Part shown: piece by piece, positions 5,399 to 48,703 of the stretch
Position numbering within the stretch: position 1 is the stretch's first letter
Layout: each line of letters begins with the position of its first letter
Assembly: GCA_023244855.1 (NCBI GenBank)
Contig: JAHFLO010000001.1
Span: forward strand, 5,895 to 69,894
Direction of reading: 5' to 3'
Length of the DNA stretch: 64,000 nt
Source of the DNA: Candidatus Harrisonbacteria bacterium
GTDB taxonomy: Bacteria; Patescibacteriota; Minisyncoccia; UBA6257; UBA11618
Notes under the pieces: model-generated
Seen by the model: the letters and a program-made list of their open reading frames with translations, nothing else
Databases searched by the model: none
Told to the model about the DNA's origin: nothing
Translations under genes and position numbers: made by a program

Positions 5399-6874
5399 TT
5401 ATTTCACGTGGAACTTTTCCTTTATCTCCTCTTCCGCTCCCCGCTCGAATTCCTCTTTCTTGTCTTTCGCTTTCGCCGCGAGGGATTTTAGTTCCGCGTC
5501 CGGCAAGGCGTTCAATTCTTTTATGCGCGCAGTGAGCGCATCTTCTGCATTCTTTAGCGGGTCGTCCAAAACTTCTTCCAAGAGCACGGCTAAAATCCAG
5601 CCCACCTTCGGGCTCGGCTCTAATCCCCCGAGGCGCATGACGTCCGTGCCGTCGAGTGCCAGCATGCGCGTGTCTATCGCGTCCTGCGCAACCTTCTCGA
5701 TCATGAACATCAAGTGGCGCAACTTGTACGGCACGGCCTTCGGCACGCCACTACCAATACGGTCCGCCTCGCGGACTTTCAGCAAGTCAGCAATATGCTC
5801 CGGCCCTACTTTGCGTACGAATCTTCGCACGCCGGATTCCGTCACTTCGCCCACGTTATAGTAAAAGAGATGCCAGCGTACTAAGTGCGCTATTTTCTCA
5901 ACGGTTTTTTTAGGGAAATGCAGGCGGTCGAGCATAATGCACGCCATTTTTGCACCCACGACTTCGTGGTTATAAAACGTGCTGTCATGCCCGTCCCCGC
6001 GCTTCGTCGCGGGCTTGCCTACGTCGTGCAATAAACTGCCGAGTCGCACCTCAAACGAATACCCCTGCTTTGCCGTATATTCCAGTGCGCGTACGTTATG
6101 CTCGTACACGCTATATATATGATGCTTGTTTTGCCCGCAGTCCACGCCATCTAGAAGCTCGGGTAATACATGGCGCATAAGCCCCGTGTCCGTAAGCATA
6201 CGGATGCCAAGCCCTGCGCCGTCGCTTTCGATGATTTTAACGAGCTCGTCACGCACGCGTTCTTTAGCCACGGCTTCGAGCAAACCTGCGTGGCGCTTCA
6301 CGGCTTCCATAGTTTTTTCTTCAACGGCAAACCCCAGCTGCGCGGCAAAGCGCACCGCGCGCATAAGGCGCAAGGCATCTTCCGTAAAGCGCGCGTCGGG
6401 CTCGCCTACCGCCCTGATTATTTTCTTTTTTAAATCAGCTAATCCCCCGAAGGGGTCTATAACAGATGCATGATTCAAGATGCATGATTCATGAATACGA
6501 AACGCAAGCGCGTTCACGGTAAAGTCGCGACGCGCTAAATCCTCTTCGATGGTTTTAACAAACGAAACGTTATCAGGGTGACGCATGTCGCGGTACGCGC
6601 CTTCGGTGCGGTACGTCGTTACTTCTACTACCGCATAGAACGGATTTTCTGATCCGGTTTTAATCCCCACCGTACCGAACGCGTTTTCGTAAACGCTATC
6701 CGGAAACAATTTCTGCACATCCTCCGGCAACGCATTGGTCGCTATGTCCCAATCCTTCGGCTCCCTGCCGAGCAAAAAATCCCGCACGCACCCGCCTACC
6801 AAGTGCGCCTCGAAACCGGCTCCGTTTAAAACCGTACCAATCGCACCAATTTCTTCGGGGACCATAAGTGCCAT
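5399..6874 (-). CDS. cca: CCA-adding tRNA nucleotidyltransferase with HD domain
   Basis: 491 aa. HLVGGCVRDFLLGREPKDWDIAT nucleotidyltransferase motif and a C-terminal HD (LLHDVGKP). Confidence 0.9.
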   Translation of the reverse strand: MALMVPEEIGAIGTVLNGAGFEAHLVGGCVRDFLLGREPKDWDIATNALPEDVQKLFPDSVYENAFGTVGIKTGSENPFYAVVEVTTYRTEGAYRDMRHPDNVSFVKTIEEDLARRDFTVNALAFRIHESCILNHASVIDPFGGLADLKKKIIRAVGEPDARFTEDALRLMRAVRFAAQLGFAVEEKTMEAVKRHAGLLEAVAKERVRDELVKIIESDGAGLGIRMLTDTGLMRHVLPELLDGVDCGQNKHHIYSVYEHNVRALEYTAKQGYSFEVRLGSLLHDVGKPATKRGDGHDSTFYNHEVVGAKMACIMLDRLHFPKKTVEKIAHLVRWHLFYYNVGEVTESGVRRFVRKVGPEHIADLLKVREADRIGSGVPKAVPYKLRHLMFMIEKVAQDAIDTRMLALDGTDVMRLGGLEPSPKVGWILAVLLEEVLDDPLKNAEDALTARIKELNALPDAELKSLAAKAKDKKEEFERGAEEEIKEKFHVK

Positions 6875-7069: not shown

Positions 7070-7070
7070 A

Positions 7071-7175
7071 AGGACTCGAACCTATGGCGACGTTCGAATT
7101 CATCCAGAGCTTATGCGAGGTTAGAATTCGATAAGGAGTGCCAGAGGGAAGCGCAGCGACGAGGAAGGTCCTTAT
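7071..7175. repeat. Structured intergenic element, copy A (inverted pseudo-copy of the tRNA-Arg 3' half plus the two-hairpin module)
   Basis: aaggactcgaacct (7070-7083) is the reverse complement of the tRNA T arm (7005-7018). Hairpin 1: cgaattc[ATCCAGAGCTTATGCGAGGTTA]gaattcg (7095-7130). Hairpin 2: ataagga[..CAGAGGGAAGCGCAGCGACGAGGAAGG]tccttat (7131-7175). Confidence 0.7.
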
Positions 7176-11917: not shown

Positions 11918-11956
11918 CAAAAACAATAACCCCAAACAGGGGTTATTGTTTTTGTG
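11916..11956. terminator. Palindromic terminator after tRNA-Glu
   Basis: cacaaaaacaataacccc-aaaca-ggggttattgtttttgtg. Confidence 0.75.
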
Positions 11957-12052
11957 CGACGAAGGAGGTTTTGCGATTTATCCCGAGCTTAAGCGAGGTT
12001 AAAATCGCAAAATTTCGTCAGAGGGAAACGAAGTGACGATGACGATCATTTT
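11957..12052. repeat. Structured intergenic element, copy B (two-hairpin module)
   Basis: Hairpin 1: gcgattt[ATCCCGAGCTTAAGCGAGGTTA]aaatcgc (11973-12008). Hairpin 2: aaaat.tcgtc[AGAGGGAAACGAAGTGACGAT]gacga.catttt (12009-12052). Confidence 0.7.
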
Positions 12053-17119: not shown

Positions 17120-17318
17120 GATTAAAAAACTATAATGCCACGGAATAAATAATAACGGAAGATGAATCGTCCTCGTAGAAAGAACTTCCTTATTGCTTCG
17201 CTTCCCTCGGAAGAAATTTTGCAATTTCAACCTCGTAAACTCGGGATGAATTGCAAAACCTCCTCCGGACGTGATTCAAAAACTCTAACCTCGCTATGCT
17301 CGGGAGATTTTTTTCATC

Positions 17319-17543: not shown

Positions 17544-17726
17544 GCTCAATTCCTTTTCCATCCAAGAAAACGAAACGTGATTTCAGAAACGAGACGTGAA
17601 AATCTGACGAGTCCCGCGCGGACAACTACTCCATTTCTCTGCGTCGGGGTTAGAGAACGTTAAAGAGCTGGAACGCATAACCACCATACCCCTTGCGGCG
17701 ACGGCGTGTCAAACGAAGAAAATCGC

Positions 17727-18149
17727 TCAGTAATACAGCGATCGGTCAATCGGAATATCGAGGCTCGTCATATTCCCAACCGCCGTCTTAAACGTACCAA
17801 CACCGCCGTTTTCGATAGGCAGTACTTCGTAACGGCTTTTATCCAGCTCGCACGAAGCGAGACACATGACGATACGCGCCTTTTGCTTGTTCCCGCTCCT
17901 GAAGCGGAGGAAAACAAAAGGATCTTCTTCGCCGATAGGCTTGCCCGTAAAAACGCACATCAGGGTTCCCGCATCCGGAAACTTAACACCCACCAATTGC
18001 CTATGCTCGACCCATTTACCGATCCGCTTAATCGTAGTGCTACTAGCACGGATAGTGCTCGCAGTCGGATTCGACTCTACGCCGAGCCCGATTTCATGAG
18101 AGGTAGGAACGAAGCCGGTCGCTAATTCACCACGACGATCCTTAAACAT
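17727..18149 (-). CDS. Hypothetical protein (islet gene)
   Basis: 140 aa. GGAGG 8 nt upstream of the ATG. TTGACA-17-TATCGT promoter and an upstream terminator at about 18225-18262. Confidence 0.55.
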   Translation of the reverse strand: MFKDRRGELATGFVPTSHEIGLGVESNPTASTIRASSTTIKRIGKWVEHRQLVGVKFPDAGTLMCVFTGKPIGEEDPFVFLRFRSGNKQKARIVMCLASCELDKSRYEVLPIENGGVGTFKTAVGNMTSLDIPIDRSLYY

Positions 18150-18334
18150 ACAGAATTCCTCCGTTAAAGAATCAAAGAGCTATTTGAACGCAAAAATACG
18201 ATACCCTTACTAAGAAAATATGTCAAATAAAAACGGGTTCGGCAGCCCCAATACCGCCGAACCCGCCTCTCTTAATCTTCGCTTCAACAAGTCTGAACGT
18301 TAGTCCTCCTTAAAAAGGAATGTGTGGAAATCCA

Positions 18335-18389
18335 CTCCCAGCATACGCAACGGAGTTTTTTGGATCACCTCCTTTCGAAAGACTGGGAG
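18335..18389. other. Hairpin containing a 16-nt copy of the 16S rRNA 3' tail (+ strand), equivalent to a 15-nt perfect SD on the - strand
   Basis: TGGATCACCTCCTTTC at 18361-18376 sits inside the stem ctcccag(18335-41)/ctgggag(18383-89). A second CCTCC lies at 18305-18309. Confidence 0.5.
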
Positions 18390-18430
18390 CTATATACATA
18401 GTACGCCCCCATAAAAATAAAAAGCAATTG

Positions 18431-21093: not shown

Positions 21094-21098
21094 GATTT

Positions 21099-21189
21099 AA
21101 AAGTTATCCCGATCCGCCAGTGCGCGGAGAGGTTAAAACTTTTCAATCATGTCCGGAGGGAAGCGAAGCGACGAGGACGATTCATTGAA
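21099..21189. repeat. Structured intergenic element, copy C (two-hairpin module, not next to a tRNA)
   Basis: Hairpin 1: aaaagtt[ATCCCGAtccgccagtGCGcgGAGAGGTTAa]aactttt (21099-21143). Hairpin 2: ttcaatca[tgtcCGGAGGGAAGCGAAGCGACGAGGACGAt]tcattgaa (21142-21189). Confidence 0.65.
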
Positions 21190-29629: not shown

Positions 29630-29659
29630 AAAAACGCCGGATATCGATCCGGCGTTTTT
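29630..29659. terminator. Bidirectional hairpin terminator
   Basis: aaaaacgccggatatcgatccggcgttttt. Confidence 0.8.
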
Positions 29660-30548
29660 ATTCTTCCTCACTCCTCCTTTTGCCGTGGAACGCCTTATAA
29701 ACTTCGCGGAGATGCTTGTTGGTGACATGGGTATAAATCTGCGTGGTGGCTATGGAGGCATGGCCGAGCATTTCTTGCACCGAACGAATATCCGCGCCAT
29801 TCGCAAGTAAGTCCGTGGCGAAGCAGTGGCGGAGGGTATGCGGCGAAAGCTTCTTACCTATAATCCCGGCTTGCACCCCATACCGCCCTATCATACGCTC
29901 CACCGCGCGCGGGGTTATACGCCCAATTATCTTTCCCTTCAGGATACTCACGAACAAAGGGATCTCCGCATCCGTGCGCCTGTCCATATATGCCGCCACC
30001 GCCTTGCACGCCGTAGGCGATAAGAATACCAGCCGCACCTTCCCTCCCTTCCCCCGCACCGTAAGCTCGCCTTTTTTTAAATCAATAAAACGGTCGAGTG
30101 CGCACAGTTCCGAAAGCCGTAAACCGGTACAAAAAAATAATTCGAGCATCGCCTTGTCACGCACGCCTGCGAGCGTCTTAGTATCCGGCGCGTCGAGCAG
30201 TCGTTCTAATTCAACGTGACTTATAATCTCCACTTGCCGCGCCGGCGCCTTTAATAATTCAATACGCTCGGGTGGGACGGTTTCATGCCCGCGCTTCGCT
30301 AAATATTTTAAAAAACTACGGAGGGCTATTACATACTGACTCTGCGTCGCCTTCTTTAAGTCCTCGCGCGCGAGAGCGAGACGGAAATCACGAATACCCT
30401 GCTCCGTAATATCGCTCACATCGGTAATTTTTGCGGCCGTAAGGAACCGCTCGAGGTAATGGGCGTACGCGCGCCGCGTGACCACCGCCCGCCCCCGCTC
30501 CACCTCTAAGTAGTCAAGATATTCCTTCAGAACCGTCAAAGCTTTCAT
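29658..30548 (-). CDS. Tyrosine recombinase XerC/XerD-type
   Basis: HTLRHCFATDLL..GADIRSVQEMLGHASIATTQIYTHV catalytic region. Start at MKALTVLKEY (30548), with a TATATT box 6 nt upstream. Confidence 0.85.
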   Translation of the reverse strand: MKALTVLKEYLDYLEVERGRAVVTRRAYAHYLERFLTAAKITDVSDITEQGIRDFRLALAREDLKKATQSQYVIALRSFLKYLAKRGHETVPPERIELLKAPARQVEIISHVELERLLDAPDTKTLAGVRDKAMLELFFCTGLRLSELCALDRFIDLKKGELTVRGKGGKVRLVFLSPTACKAVAAYMDRRTDAEIPLFVSILKGKIIGRITPRAVERMIGRYGVQAGIIGKKLSPHTLRHCFATDLLANGADIRSVQEMLGHASIATTQIYTHVTNKHLREVYKAFHGKRRSEEE

Positions 30549-30599
30549 GGTTTGAATATACCGCAAAAAGCGTGATATGCTCTAAATCTTCTAAAGACT

Positions 30600-34357: not shown

Positions 34358-34512
34358 AGTTCGCTACTCCCTCAACTACGTACATTGGACTTGGAAAAGA
34401 AAGAGGTGCGACGCTGCGCCTCTCGCCGAGTGTATCTTAAAATAATCCTATAACCGGCGTTTTTCAAGTATGCGTTGCCATAATCCCCTGTCGTTGCTAT
34501 ATTCACAGCCAT

Positions 34513-34587
34513 GGGCGCCTAGCTCAGTGGTAGAGCGCTTCTTTTACACAGAAGATGTCGGGGGTTCGATTCCCTTGGCGCCCACCA
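34513..34587 (+). tRNA. tRNA-Val (anticodon UAC), CCA encoded
   Basis: Acceptor GGGCGCC/GGCGCCC, anticodon arm CTTCT-TTTACAC-AGAAG, T arm GGGGG-TTCGATT-CCCTT, ends ACCA. Confidence 0.85.
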
Positions 34588-34625
34588 ATAATAAAAGCCC
34601 TTATTTGGGGCTTTTATTATTGGTG
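34583..34625. terminator. Palindromic terminator overlapping the tRNA-Val 3' end
   Basis: caccaataataaaagccc-ttatttg-gggcttttattattggtg. Confidence 0.75.
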
Positions 34626-34743
34626 ATTGCACTAGGGGGAATCGAACCCGGAGGGGCGAGAGTTTTTAATGAGCTCGCGAAGCGAGCGATTATAAAAACC
34701 GATGTCTCGACCGCAGGAAGAGGCGATTCCCTTGGCGCCCACC
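34626..34743. repeat. Structured intergenic element, copy F (inverted pseudo T arm, core, direct copy of the tRNA-Val 3' end)
   Basis: gggggaatcgaacccgg (34635-51) is inverted relative to the tRNA T arm. The core GGCGAGaGTTTTT..hairpin..AAAAAC..GTCTCGACCG is shared with copy G. gattcccttggcgcccacc (34725-43) is identical to 34568-86. Confidence 0.7.
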
Positions 34744-43942: not shown

Positions 43943-44013
43943 GCAGGTATAGTACAATGGTAGTACGTTTGGTTGCCAATCAAAATACACGGGTTCGATT
44001 CCCGTTACCTGCT
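43943..44013 (+). tRNA. tRNA-Gly (anticodon GCC)
   Basis: Acceptor GCAGGTA/TACCTGC, anticodon loop TTGCCAA, discriminator U, T arm ACGGG-TTCGATT-CCCGT. Confidence 0.85.
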
Positions 44014-44022
44014 CAGTCCAAC

Positions 44023-44051
44023 AAAAAGACTCCCTATAAGGGAGTCTTTTT
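44023..44051. terminator. Bidirectional terminator shared by the convergent tRNA-Gly and tRNA-Arg
   Basis: aaaaagactccc-tataa-gggagtcttttt. Confidence 0.8.
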
Positions 44052-44066
44052 GTTTGCTTTAGACAG

Positions 44067-44138
44067 TGCGCCCACGAGGAATCGAACCTCGATTAGAGGA
44101 TCCGCAATCCTCCGTTCTATCCATTAAACTATGGGCGC
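44067..44138 (-). tRNA. tRNA-Arg (anticodon GCG)
   Basis: Acceptor GCGCCCA/TGGGCGC, anticodon arm GAGGA-TTGCGGA-TCCTC, T arm CGAGG-TTCGATT-CCTCG. Confidence 0.8.
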
Positions 44139-47810: not shown

Positions 47811-47943
47811 AGAACGGGGCGGATAAGACGCAGTCCCTTCGAAGACGGGGAAGAGCATAACGCACAATCCACCTCGTGCGACTCTCTCCCGTCTTTTTAT
47901 TTGAAAACGACGCCGAAAAAGAATAGTATGCCTATACCCGCAA

Positions 47944-48027
47944 GGAGGGATAGCCTAGCGGTTAAGGCAAGGGATTGCTAATCCCTGGCTCGAAAGGGCC
48001 TCGTGGGTTCGAATCCCACTCCCTCCG
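47944..48027 (+). tRNA. tRNA-Ser (anticodon GCU)
   Basis: Acceptor GGAGGGA/TCCCTCC, anticodon arm AGGGA-TTGCTAA-TCCCT, long variable arm, T arm GTGGG-TTCGAAT-CCCAC, discriminator G. Confidence 0.85.
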
Positions 48028-48031
48028 CAGA

Positions 48032-48071
48032 ACAAACAAAAATACCCCCTATGTGGGGTATTTTTGTTTGT
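48032..48071. terminator. Palindromic terminator after tRNA-Ser
   Basis: acaaacaaaaatacccc-ctatgt-ggggtatttttgtttgt. Confidence 0.75.
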
Positions 48072-48232
48072 CTTGTGAAAGAGTGGAATTCGAACCGAAG
48101 GCGAGCGTTTTTCCCCAAGCGCTAAAGCGCTTGGTCGAAAAACGCGAAGTCTCGACCGAGCTTGCGAGGGAGAGGCGAATCCCACTCTTCCATTGCGTGC
48201 GTAATCGAAAAACGGCAGGCGAATCCCACTCC
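48072..48232. repeat. Structured intergenic element, copy G (homologous to F), with two extra direct copies of the tRNA-Ser T-loop/acceptor segment
   Basis: gagtggaattcgaacc (48081-96) is inverted relative to the tRNA. Core GGCGAGcGTTTTT..ccaagcgc-taaa-gcgcttgg..AAAAACGCG..GTCTCGACCGAGCTTGCGAGG. gaatcccactc recurs at 48177 and 48221 (tRNA copy at 48011). Confidence 0.7.
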
Positions 48233-48703
48233 TCAGTCGCTCTCGCTCTTCACATCCACCCCGCTCCGTAAAACCCCCACAAGCACATCCGCCCCAGCAG
48301 CAACCACAAGAGAGACAAAAATAACCATAAGGCCCATAGCAACGCCACCCGCAATGTCGTCGCCAGGCCGAACTATCATTAAGTAGGCCTCCGGCAGCGC
48401 GACGAGACCAACGAGCAACAGCGCACAGCGCCGTATCGTCCGCATGGCTTTCACAGTTACCCGTGAGAACGCCTTACCCTGTCCTACGCACCCCAACGCC
48501 TTGAATGCGTTATAAACCGCGACGAAAAACGGAATAGACGCCGCATACGCATACGCTAAGAACAAATCGTTGAAGTAAACCTGGAAGAACGTGGCGTCCA
48601 CATTTCTACCCTCGAAGTGAGGCTCCCATAGCATGAAGGTAAGGACACCTATACCGATAAGCACGACGACCGCCTGAAGGAATACTAAGGAGATTCTTTT
48701 CAT
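48233..48703 (-). CDS. Hypothetical 4-TM membrane protein (DUF2975-like, tentative)
   Basis: 156 aa with four hydrophobic helices. Its stop abuts the last tRNA-Ser-like repeat. Confidence 0.5.
   Translation of the reverse strand: MKRISLVFLQAVVVLIGIGVLTFMLWEPHFEGRNVDATFFQVYFNDLFLAYAYAASIPFFVAVYNAFKALGCVGQGKAFSRVTVKAMRTIRRCALLLVGLVALPEAYLMIVRPGDDIAGGVAMGLMVIFVSLVVAAGADVLVGVLRSGVDVKSESD

Follow-up and report, generated by a model that had tools for sequence, protein, structure and literature searches.

The 64,000-nucleotide stretch of Candidatus Harrisonbacteria chromosome analyzed here, which we call the window and to which all coordinates refer unless another locus is named, contains a tRNA-Ser(GCT) gene that is followed by a hairpin terminator and then by a noncoding element built in part from the tRNA gene itself. 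The 3′ segment of the gene, running from C56 of the T-loop to the 3′ end and termed X, is present at this locus three times in direct orientation and once inverted (X′), as a sequence-only reading had proposed; a repeat search places CGAATCCCACTC(C/T) at 48010, 48176, and 48220, and the inverted copy occupies 48076–48096. We are fairly confident that the element belongs to a structure-constrained family of extragenic hairpin repeats that is carried by a clade of Candidate Phyla Radiation (CPR) bacteria and is found 3′ of terminator hairpins, mainly in the flanks of tRNA genes. The parts of the tRNA-Ser locus are as follows.

47901–47929 (+): promoter-like site of tRNA-Ser (TTGAAA-17-TAGTAT)
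47944–48028 (+): tRNA-Ser(GCT); X begins at 48010
48032–48071 (no strand): terminator hairpin with perfect 17-bp arms (48032–48048 and 48055–48071)
48076–48096 (+): X′, the inverted acceptor 3′ strand, T-stem, and T-loop of tRNA-Ser (TGAAAGAGTGGAATTCGAACC), ending in the left frame TCGAACC
48097–48175 (+): type-1 core of 79 nt, with right end GGGAGAGG
48176–48192 (+): direct copy 1 of the tRNA-Ser 3′ part from C56 (CGAATCCCACTCTTCCA), which closes the element by pairing with X′
48193–48219 (+): remnant of a second unit, in which TCGAAAAACG (48205–48214) repeats 48135–48144 and ..GGCAGG is the right frame
48220–48234 (+): direct copy 2 (CGAATCCCACTCCTC)

The triplet of direct, inverted, and direct tRNA 3′ segments closes the element in a long stem and makes the terminator part of a large palindrome. 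The inverted copy belongs to a palindrome that takes in the tRNA terminator: this hairpin, which is preceded by an A-run and followed by a T-run and looks bidirectional, forms the center of an imperfect palindrome whose 36-nt arms (48006–48041 and 48061–48096, 72% identity) bring together the tRNA-Ser 3′ part, the terminator, and the inverted copy. Across the core, the inverted arm at 48076–48092 (TGAAAGAGTGGAATTCG) pairs with 48176–48192 over 17 nt (88%, with two A:C mismatches). The inverted copy had originally been placed at 48081–48096 as one side of a 16-bp stem; GAGTGGAATTCGAACC is the inverted T-arm there, but the 16-mer that was quoted starts at 48077, so the position was off by 4. Counting the segment within the tRNA gene as the first, the second and third direct copies both carry AGGCGAATCCCACTC as part of an 18-nt repeat with 94% identity. 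A convergent gene for a DUF2975 protein (48233–48703, minus strand) has its stop codon (48233–48235) within the third tRNA-Ser-like copy, so that the repeat provides the end of a protein-coding gene.

From left to right, the type-1 core of the tRNA-Ser element consists of a linker (GAAGG), a long hairpin of the form GTTTTT-(variable tip)-AAAAAC, the word GTCTCGACCG, and a CCGAGC..GCGAGG hairpin with tandem G.A. This core had been taken as homologous to that of an element beside tRNA-Val(TAC), and the comparison bears this out. The two share GTCTCGACCG, which occurs exactly twice in the window, both times within these elements, and GGCGAGNGTTTTT, two of whose three occurrences lie within them; an nhmmer profile finds matches at E < 1e-20 in the window at these two elements only. 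The tRNA-Val locus is composed as follows.

34513–34587 (+): tRNA-Val(TAC), with its own promoter-like site at 34475–34503
34583–34625 (no strand): tRNA-Val terminator hairpin with perfect 18-bp arms, the stem beginning within the tRNA 3′ end (CACCA)
34621–34649 (+): X′ of the Val element, in which GGGAATCGAACCC (34637–34649) is the perfect inverted T-arm and the outer part is a diverged complement of the acceptor
34650–34723 (+): type-1 core
34724–34743 (+): direct, perfect 20-nt copy of the tRNA-Val 3′ part from C56

Here the repeats are perfect over 20 nt in direct orientation (at 34567 and 34724) and over 13 nt in inverted orientation (at 34562 and 34637). On both strands, the Ser and Val elements fold better than dinucleotide shuffles of their sequences (z −2.4 to −5.0), which is more than chance.

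A repeat family in tRNA 3′ flanks

Relatives of the elements were collected in three ways, and the resulting loci are numbered with the prefix L. A pattern scan of species-representative genomes gave one true relative, L006, and a metagenome scan gave tRNA-Val, tRNA-Ile, and tRNA-Ser loci with elements (L016, L018, L009, and L020). Homologues of tyrosyl-tRNA synthetase (TyrRS) were then used for fetching syntenic loci of 15–21 kb, in which TyrRS is 88% (L022), 82% (L023–L026), 76% (L027 and L028), 72% (L029 and L030), 71% (L031), or 58% (L032) identical to that of the window. The genome and metagenome scans used type-1 patterns and returned many chance or unrelated matches; L008, L011, L014, and L019 were discarded as relatives because their matches are unrelated, a proteobacterial repeat being among them. 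What the metagenome scan had caught by chance is a GC-rich repeat, AAAAACCCCGTCGTCTCGACCG.AGCC..GCG.AGCGAGGCGAAG.GGAGAGAC with an inverted copy, which stands just after stop codons in high-GC contigs (L008 1690–1776, L011 4086–4167, L014 9–90, and L019 10344–10431). For the census itself, profiles of three core types were run over 191.6 kb, comprising 9 non-redundant loci and 43 tRNA genes.

The family is present with at least three core types in seven related CPR genomes, and the clade carrying it is CPR/Patescibacteria with Paceibacteria- or Parcubacteria-like proteins. All but three of the 38 profile matches are found no more than 600 nt downstream of a tRNA gene with the same orientation (at 37–377 nt), where about 7% would be expected from the share of sequence, and the first unit stands 37–64 nt past the tRNA end. 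Two or three different units often form an array. Every copy is intergenic and 3′ of a hairpin terminator, always in one orientation relative to the hairpin and a few bases from a GC-rich stem-loop. The tRNA genes of the window are each a separate transcription unit closed by a hairpin terminator, with tRNA-Ser and tRNA-Val each having their own promoter-like site and then a hairpin with a T-run. Because every tRNA gene ends in such a terminator, the tRNA 3′ flanks are the main habitat of the units. The weak Rfam matches to the hairpin 3′ of tRNA-Arg(TCG) are all to terminator parts of leader or small-RNA families.

The shared blocks are thus not low-complexity words scattered with no tie to tRNA genes, and coincidence of this kind, or the ordinary likeness of T-arms among tRNAs, is an extremely improbable explanation of the elements. 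It is true that all tRNA T-loops are alike, that the convergent tRNA-Gly and tRNA-Arg(GCG) genes give 11-nt inverted matches, and that GTCTCGACCG with one mismatch allowed is no commoner than chance. However, the matches reach into tRNA-specific stems and acceptor strands, the profile E-values range from 1e-20 to 1e-32, the stems covary, and the same architecture is repeated in eight loci from independent assemblies.

Genomes with a TyrRS 71–90% identical to that of the window keep elements at the same tRNA loci. The flanks of tRNA-Val and tRNA-Ser are filled in all genomes compared, while tRNA-Ile has an element in three relatives and none in the window, and tRNA-Gly and tRNA-Arg(GCG) are each empty in some genomes and filled in others. 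At 58% identity (L032), an analogous structure follows tRNA-Ser, with a direct copy that begins in the T-stem and stops at the tRNA 3′ end. Several contigs end within or right after repeats (the start of L016, L023 15758–15842, L024 1–60, and L031 16008–16052), which appear to be assembly break points; in practice, the repeats break metagenome assemblies at tRNA genes and can mislead the calling of integration sites.

Apart from the Ser and Val elements, the window has the following members of the family, in order along the sequence.

2454–2466 (−): inverted 13-nt copy of the tRNA-Ala T-arm after the terminator, followed by an apparent decayed core
7070–7173 (+): inverted T-arm copy AAGGACTCGAACCT (7070–7083) and type-2 core, 3′ of tRNA-Arg(TCG)
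11955–12050 (+): type-2 core 3′ of tRNA-Glu, with no tRNA-derived arms
17164–17268 (−): type-2 core away from tRNA genes, after the terminator hairpin of a protein gene, with the generic right end ..ACGAGGACGATTCAT
21097–21185 (+): type-2 core away from tRNA genes, after the terminator of the upstream gene

Type 2 combines a stem that has undergone compensatory changes with a conserved loop of 22 nt (ATCCNGAGCTTANGCGAGGTTA), after which comes GGAGGGAARCG..GACGAGGACGATTCAT; in the copy after tRNA-Arg(TCG), the loop is followed by GGAGGGAAGCG... The copies after tRNA-Arg(TCG) and tRNA-Glu had been linked to the Ser element through the word CGAGCTTGCGAGG. The word is present in both, but with one or two extra bases (GAGCTTATGCGAGG at 7107 and GAGCTTAAGCGAGG at 11985), and these copies are of the second core type. 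A partial second unit, with approximate limits, lies just upstream of the 17164–17268 copy on the minus strand. Between that copy and the tRNA-Leu(TAA) and tRNA-Cys genes is a stretch of about 700 nt (17706–18430) in which a 140-amino-acid open reading frame (ORF; 17727–18149, minus strand) has no Pfam match and GTCGGATTCGACTC at 18068 is reminiscent of a transfer-messenger RNA (tmRNA) 5′ region; ARAGORN and Rfam call nothing in it. The decayed repeat after tRNA-Ala contains one of four perfect DnaA-box-like words (TTATCCACA at 2411, 11776, 26534, and 62555). The boxes near tRNA-Ala and tRNA-Pro were dropped as a lead because they are not clustered, and cumulative GC skew has no turning point within the window.

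The window also carries genes for FtsH, NusA, trigger factor, ClpP, TyrRS, ArgRS, enolase, GyrA, IF-2, RecG, and a class-I aminoacyl-tRNA synthetase, as well as 13 tRNA genes. The host is a small-genome CPR bacterium, since the closest TyrRS homologues are in metagenome-assembled genomes (MAGs) labeled Pacebacteria, Parcubacteria, or Patescibacteria. A gene for the CCA-adding enzyme (PolyA_pol head and HD domains; 5399–6874, minus strand) stands between tRNA-Pro and tRNA-Arg(TCG); CCA is encoded only in the Val and Pro tRNA genes of the window, and most others end in ..CAC. A single Xer-type tyrosine recombinase gene (29658–30566, minus strand) adjoins ftsH and is syntenic in L022 and L023; its product scores 220.7 bits against a cut-off of 220 for archaeal XerA, below the cut-offs for bacterial XerC and XerD.

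Structure of the units

Units are built from five parts. X′, the inverted tRNA T-arm, ends in ..TCGAACC(C) and often reaches outward into the acceptor strand, merging with the right arm of the terminator. It is followed by a CC-NNN-GG linker and a long hairpin, which in type 1 is GTTTTT-tip-AAAAAC with a tip that varies by compensatory change. A small hairpin, TCTC..GAGA, at times with a CCGAGC-loop-GCGAGG insert (tandem G.A), ends in RGG, and the unit closes with X, the direct tRNA copy, from exactly C56. A scan for the right frame in eight related loci gave 32 flanks, of which two are re-scored tRNA-Gly units, leaving 30 distinct; the right junction is RGG|CGA in every one. The left junctions found read TCGAA(C/G)C. 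T54 and T55 are missing from the direct copy and kept as AA in the inverted copy, and it is because they are missing from the direct copy only that the closing stem has a constant AA bulge followed by CC:GG. An enrichment of the mini-hairpin GCGAAGC (36 occurrences where 21.6 are expected, a number that none of 100 shuffles attains) was set aside as uninformative, as the hairpins are spread over the whole window and lie mostly far from the elements.

Pairing covers 89.7% of the cells in an alignment of 15 copies, with double changes in 9 of 22 pairs; none of 500 shuffles reaches the observed level of covariation, and slid controls lie far lower. Of 22 units, 18 are more stable when folded as the tRNA-sense strand (sum −984 against −902 kcal/mol), one helix has a conserved U:G pair and every one-sided change in it leads to U:G, and the closing stems contain 25 G:T against 9 A:C. 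The strand bias and the excess of G:T suit an RNA in the tRNA sense and a single-stranded DNA (ssDNA) of the top strand alike. The closing stem amounts to a helix of acceptor and T-stem in L031 Arg (19 bp), L022 Val (15 bp), and the window Ser element (16–17 bp with 2 mismatches), whereas only the T-stem/T-loop half pairs (6–10 bp) in window Val, L023 Val and Ile, L006 Ser, and others. There is no ORF in the units. Scans of the Ser and Val regions found no promoter-like site for the units, and three patterns had zero matches in 2.9 million viral contigs. Against the covariance models of Rfam 15, only the tRNAs reached gathering scores, and the elements gave only generic long-hairpin or terminator matches at E ≤ 10. 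Identity with a tRNA, tmRNA, or other known RNA on either strand was rejected, as ARAGORN and Rfam (gathering scores; E ≤ 10) returned nothing of the kind. By eye, the opposite strand has a tRNA-like look, with an acceptor, a "D-arm", a long arm, and a T-arm, but this was also rejected because T-stem and acceptor are unpaired in most copies.

One reading of these folds is that the [X′-core-X] transcript is a functional RNA, in which the genuine tRNA 3′ strand completes a minihelix that mimics stacked acceptor and T stems and is recognized by RNase P, RNase Z, or the CCA-adding enzyme, so that read-through or neighboring transcripts are processed or tagged. The more stable plus strand, the U:G pair that is valid on this strand only, and the predominance of G:T over A:C in the closing stem all favor it, as do the recurring tandem G.A motifs of the cores, with their compensatory G:C to A:T changes, and the positions kept over deep divergence. 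Direct-copy identity stops at the tRNA 3′ end in several loci, such as L031 Arg, L027 Arg, L022 Val, L009 Ser, and L032 Ser, and in L031 Arg the inverted copy begins exactly at the complement of position 72/73, giving the 19-bp helix. Against it, little transcription is expected of units placed between a strong intrinsic terminator and the next promoter, and neither a promoter-like site in the scans nor an Rfam match speaks for an RNA. In many copies, such as window Val and L006 Ser, pairing involves the T-stem/T-loop half only (8–10 bp) and the acceptor part is mismatched; the units are dispensable, as some genomes have lost them at Ile, Gly, and Arg and loss is also seen inside one population; and G:T is the least destabilizing mismatch in ssDNA hairpins too. 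We therefore consider it doubtful that the units are locus-specific mimics of the tRNA "top half", selected across the CPR clade and handled by RNase P, RNase Z, and the CCA-adding enzyme, which would mark, trim, or protect read-through or neighboring transcripts. If they are active as RNA, they would be self-updating tRNA mimics and would correspond, in bacteria, to the t-elements of organelles, with each signal cloned from the tRNA beside it.

Arms, cores, and their rearrangement

The ends of the units follow the adjacent tRNA gene. Measured from C56 over the 32 flanks, the run of exact identity averages 12.6 nt with the adjacent tRNA (up to 19–21) and 7.7 nt with the best non-adjacent one, and among the 30 distinct units the adjacent tRNA is the better match in 23, tied in 5, and worse in 2. 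The two exceptions are a Ser-like flank beside tRNA-Val in L029 and a flank of another tRNA-Ser allele in L009; whole flanks can therefore also be moved or left behind. The sequence-only reading, that one element family has ends tailored to whichever tRNA it adjoins, holds well beyond the loci from which it was drawn, with the refinement that the ends are most likely copied from the neighboring tRNA and not borne by the element.

In L018 and L023, one 67-nt core is identical at tRNA-Val, where it has Val ends, and at tRNA-Ile, where it has Ile ends, the arms and linkers being locus-specific; in L006, which is a MAG, tRNA-Ser and its terminator are followed by a Val-like core with Ser-specific ends. 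Linkers are kept at orthologous loci between genomes (CCAGYATGG at Ile and TGAMAGGCCGCC at Arg), whereas the core bodies at these loci differ, match paralogues of the same genome, or switch from type 1 to type 2. It follows that cores are exchanged between loci, and copies within one genome evolve in concert.

The direct repeats that result from this arrangement drive exact deletions and tandem duplications. A strain comparison for presence or absence had been suggested, and it reveals a 157-nt polymorphism at tRNA-Arg(GCG) among contigs with identical TyrRS: L023 and L024 carry [X + terminator + X′ + core], and L025 and L026 do not. The variant measures exactly 157 nt, is bounded by a 33-nt perfect repeat from C56, and is set in otherwise identical sequence, and the empty allele retains the left arm of the terminator only. 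As the more distant L031 has the orthologous element, the filled state is ancestral and the variant is a precise repeat-mediated deletion. At tRNA-Val of L018 and L023, two tandem units that are 2 changes apart each include a full copy of the tRNA 3′ end and a terminator, and at tRNA-Ile the same contigs repeat X, the terminator, X′, and the left half of the core.

Repeats and losses of this kind recall the scars of integrative elements, with the direct repeats as attL and attR of phages or islands in tRNA genes and the intervening segment as a deletion remnant. A direct repeat that starts in the T-loop is the typical identity block of T-loop-targeting integrases, and the repeats here run from the T-loop to or past the tRNA end (19–69 nt), undergo exact deletion between them, and occur several in series. 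This origin is nevertheless highly improbable. The same structured core of about 75 nt, with covarying stems, recurs at five or more tRNA species per genome, which is not expected of independent remnants; no integrase or phage genes lie nearby, the viral contigs hold no match, the inverted copy and the missing T54 and T55 are foreign to att scars, and type 2 is also present away from tRNA genes. Scars of integrative elements are effectively excluded, as is chance. A phage or plasmid origin was likewise rejected: two viral matches of the type-2 word lie within coding sequence, and a phage BLAST matched the tRNA only.

Type-2 units beside tRNA genes usually have X′ at the left and a generic right end. 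Three copies lie away from tRNA genes (window 17164–17268(−) and 21097–21185(+), and L022 5743–5826(−)), each just 3′ of a GC-rich hairpin, with no tRNA-derived arms and no clear terminal inverted repeats. The L022 unit, of about 95 nt, is missing from the orthologous spacer of five other genomes, while the hairpin itself is kept in six, and it is a lineage-specific insertion with no obvious target duplication. Because of these armless copies, the family behaves as hairpin-adjacent extragenic repeats, and arms derived from tRNAs belong to the tRNA context. A side case of nesting is seen 3′ of tRNA-Ser in L029 (19305–19520), where a type-3 unit is split by an insert with 13-nt inverted repeats (TGATTTTAAAATT ... 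AATTTTAAAATCA) and a type-2-like right half follows the insert.

The window has a rearrangement of its own at tRNA-Gly (+) and tRNA-Arg(GCG) (−), which are convergent (43943–44138) and have one bidirectional terminator in common. In L022, L023, L027, L029, L031, and L032, the loci in which both genes were found, Arg and Gly stand in tandem on one strand, and repeat units are often located between or 3′ of both genes. Since the relatives have this tandem order, a segment of about 200 bp with the tRNA-Gly gene and its promoter has been inverted, and the units lost, in the window lineage. The inverted full tRNA-Arg of the window occupies the exact X′ position of L022, after GCTTTAG. The inversion was dropped as evidence of T-loop recombination, on reasoning alone, because its breakpoints are off the T-loops.

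Several of these properties would suit folded-strand cassettes, that is, [X′-core-X] recombining as an ssDNA hairpin at or near the T-loop through a tyrosine recombinase, perhaps the Xer-type enzyme. The stem would rebuild a duplex T-arm half-site with two extrahelical A's, as in an integron attC or the attP of CTX phage, and swaps between loci would resemble those of Xer-dependent dif modules. In favor are the invariant junctions (..TCGAACC and RGG|CGA) and constant AA bulge, a structure that is kept while the sequence varies, unit lengths of 75–190 nt, arrays in one orientation, tolerance of G:T on one strand only, the exact excision-like 157-nt variant from C56, the swapping of cores while the outer arms stay, and the Xer-type gene at 29658–30566, syntenic in relatives. 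A single base separates the T-loop GTTCGAT from the integron core GTTRRRY, and tyrosine integrases classically use the T-arms of tRNA genes as core sites. Even so, a circle integrating at the T-loop would create a chimeric tRNA unless it already had the 3′ end of that tRNA. The identity of the shared Val and Ile core begins past the linker and not at the T-loop, the L032 direct copy starts in the T-stem and not at C56, type-2 copies insert far from any T-loop, and homologous deletion between the 33-nt repeats explains the 157-nt variant equally well. Xer is universal, so its presence is uninformative. The variable right ends of the repeats, the identity tracts that begin off the T-loop, the deviating L032 junction, and the type-2 copies located elsewhere than at tRNAs speak against cassettes and against an RNA role alike. 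We regard such cassettes as unlikely; if an enzyme does make the arms, it recognizes the T-arms of tRNA genes in a new way.

The reading that we prefer, at what we would call an even chance, is that the units are extragenic hairpin repeats, similar to repetitive extragenic palindromes (REPs) and MITEs (miniature inverted-repeat transposable elements), whose arms are copied from the tRNA and kept identical to it by local recombination. We are less confident that the copying occurs by DNA-level recombination or template switching from the adjacent gene than that the family exists. In such a mechanism, the universally conserved T-loop GGTTCGAWTCC, which is nearly palindromic around TCGA, together with a T-loop-like terminus of the element (GG(A)CGATTC in type 2) would act as the seed, and repeated gene conversion from the tRNA would then hold the arms identical. 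If the arms do arise in this way, they illustrate how local rearrangements can be nucleated by the most conserved palindrome-like sequence in any genome. The host might benefit, for instance through bidirectional termination or the insulation of tRNA genes.

A number of points weigh against recombination-copied arms. The roughly 30 window ORFs that were scanned and the Pfam matches of about 120 genes of related loci, which represent about 190 kb and not whole genomes, include no transposase (RAYT/Y1, IS200/605, or IS110) and no reverse transcriptase; the single Xer-type enzyme is the sole recombinase in the ORFs and gene lists examined. The route to inverted and direct copies is reconstructed, as no freshly made set of arms was caught; the sole clean indel is a deletion, not an insertion; and no tRNA in any locus has arms but no core, so that arm formation and core presence are coupled in a way that local recombination does not fully explain. 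That the direct copy always lacks the T54 and T55 kept by the inverted copy is better for a site-specific enzyme than for sloppy template switching, and folded-strand cassettes or a functional RNA account better than sloppy copying for the fixed junction at RGG|CGA, the constancy of the AA bulge, and the long conservation. Persistence at the same tRNA loci, with arms up to 19/19 identical, hints at selection for function, and the tRNA-sense folding, conserved U:G, and G:T excess would also fit an RNA role.

Other routes to the units were discarded. Insertion of the core into a ready-made, arm-only palindrome was set aside because no GAATCGATTC-type junction is present in any locus. On paper, a simple inverted triplication by origin-dependent inverted-repeat amplification (ODIRA), and likewise integration of an excised circle at the T-loop, gives the wrong order of parts or a chimeric tRNA. 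Fixed ends of the IS200/IS605 type do not apply, as the segment between the repeats opens with tRNA-specific sequence. A link to group I or group II introns was set aside, as the tRNA introns described in Patescibacteria interrupt the anticodon loop and the phylum is reported to lack group II introns (PMC13011429).

Relation to known systems

The literature search turned up no description of repeats tailored to tRNAs, and we found no precedent for arms copied from a neighboring tRNA. As CPR bacteria have tiny, tightly packed genomes with few recognized mobile elements, a repeat in the 3′ flanks of many tRNA genes is a notable structural feature.

Attachment sites in tRNA genes typically have a direct repeat of the tRNA 3′ part from the T-loop, a functional tRNA left intact upstream, and precise loss between the repeats. 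The units here have such repeats, intact tRNAs, and precise loss; their insert, however, is a gene-free structured repeat of 75–125 nt found at many tRNAs, and there is an additional inverted copy. Integron attC sites and the folded attP of CTX phage are defined by structure, with paired end boxes, extrahelical bases, variable length, and same-orientation arrays, and the structure-defined identity, pairing end boxes, extrahelical bases, and same-orientation arrays of our units are close to this pattern. The left box, ATCGAAC, fits the attC consensus RYYYAAC at 6 of 7 positions, and the right box is GG-CGAWTCC, with TT missing; the resemblance of the boxes stems from the T-loop sequence itself. 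In contrast to attC, there is no integron integrase or attI, the units have no cassette ORFs, their end boxes vary with the neighboring tRNA, and the junction is GG|CGA, lacking the TT, instead of G|TT. The Xer-like recombinase scores 125 bits against an integron-integrase cut-off of 265, and its gene lies 4–18 kb from the elements.

ODIRA and quasi-palindrome template switching leave a direct-inverted-direct segment with hairpin-capable sequences at both junctions. Our units are also direct-inverted-direct, with the terminator and the core at the junctions, but they span tens of bases instead of kilobases, and their second junction holds a dispersed repeat that is not at the reference position. 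Because of this repeat, a simple ODIRA model fails to give the observed order. Plant-mitochondrial t-elements and the tRNA-like domain of tmRNA have helices that imitate acceptor and T stems beside other transcripts. The units here may offer a similar imitation of the acceptor and T stems, to judge from their predicted pairing; unlike t-elements, they are known from sequence alone, and many copies have no acceptor part of the helix.

Like MITEs such as the Neisseria Correia elements, RUP, and BOX, the units are non-autonomous, about 100 nt long, hairpin-forming, and intergenic, with lineage-specific insertion and presence/absence polymorphism. They differ from MITEs in having no fixed, element-borne terminal inverted repeats, as the arms follow the neighboring tRNA, and no short target duplication of fixed length: the duplication here runs from 8 to about 100 nt, always from C56, with a variable right end. 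No related insertion sequence was found.

The closest overall likeness may be to REPs and their compound forms (bacterial interspersed mosaic elements, BIMEs, and REP doublets forming hairpins, REPINs), which are also short, non-coding, imperfect palindromes that are extragenic, dispersed, mostly 3′ of genes or terminators, and often clustered, with G:T in their stems and several sequence families per genome. The REPs tagged with GTAG or CGTC have G:T-rich stems and a location 3′ of genes, and some of their families are nested in larger "target palindromes" found only in the occupied state (Di Nocera et al. 2013; PMC3733652). These words also appear in the small hairpins and stems of our units (CCGTAGGGG; GACG..CGTC). 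GTAG is in the small-hairpin loops of several copies (CCCGTAGGGG and CCGTAGG), others having GCAGG, GTTGG, or GAAGG, and CGTC is in type-2 stems; in neither case is the tag at a defined terminus. Our units differ from REPs in being longer (75–110 nt) and multi-helical, in their low copy number (7 in 64 kb) with no RAYT gene in the roughly 190 kb examined, and in their tie to tRNA genes, whose sequence the outer stem copies, so that it differs at each locus. Such a tie of REP- or MITE-like repeats to tRNA genes is unusual and, in the literature found so far, undescribed. The present family is ancient and structure-constrained, and it still yields deletions, duplications, and core swaps within populations.

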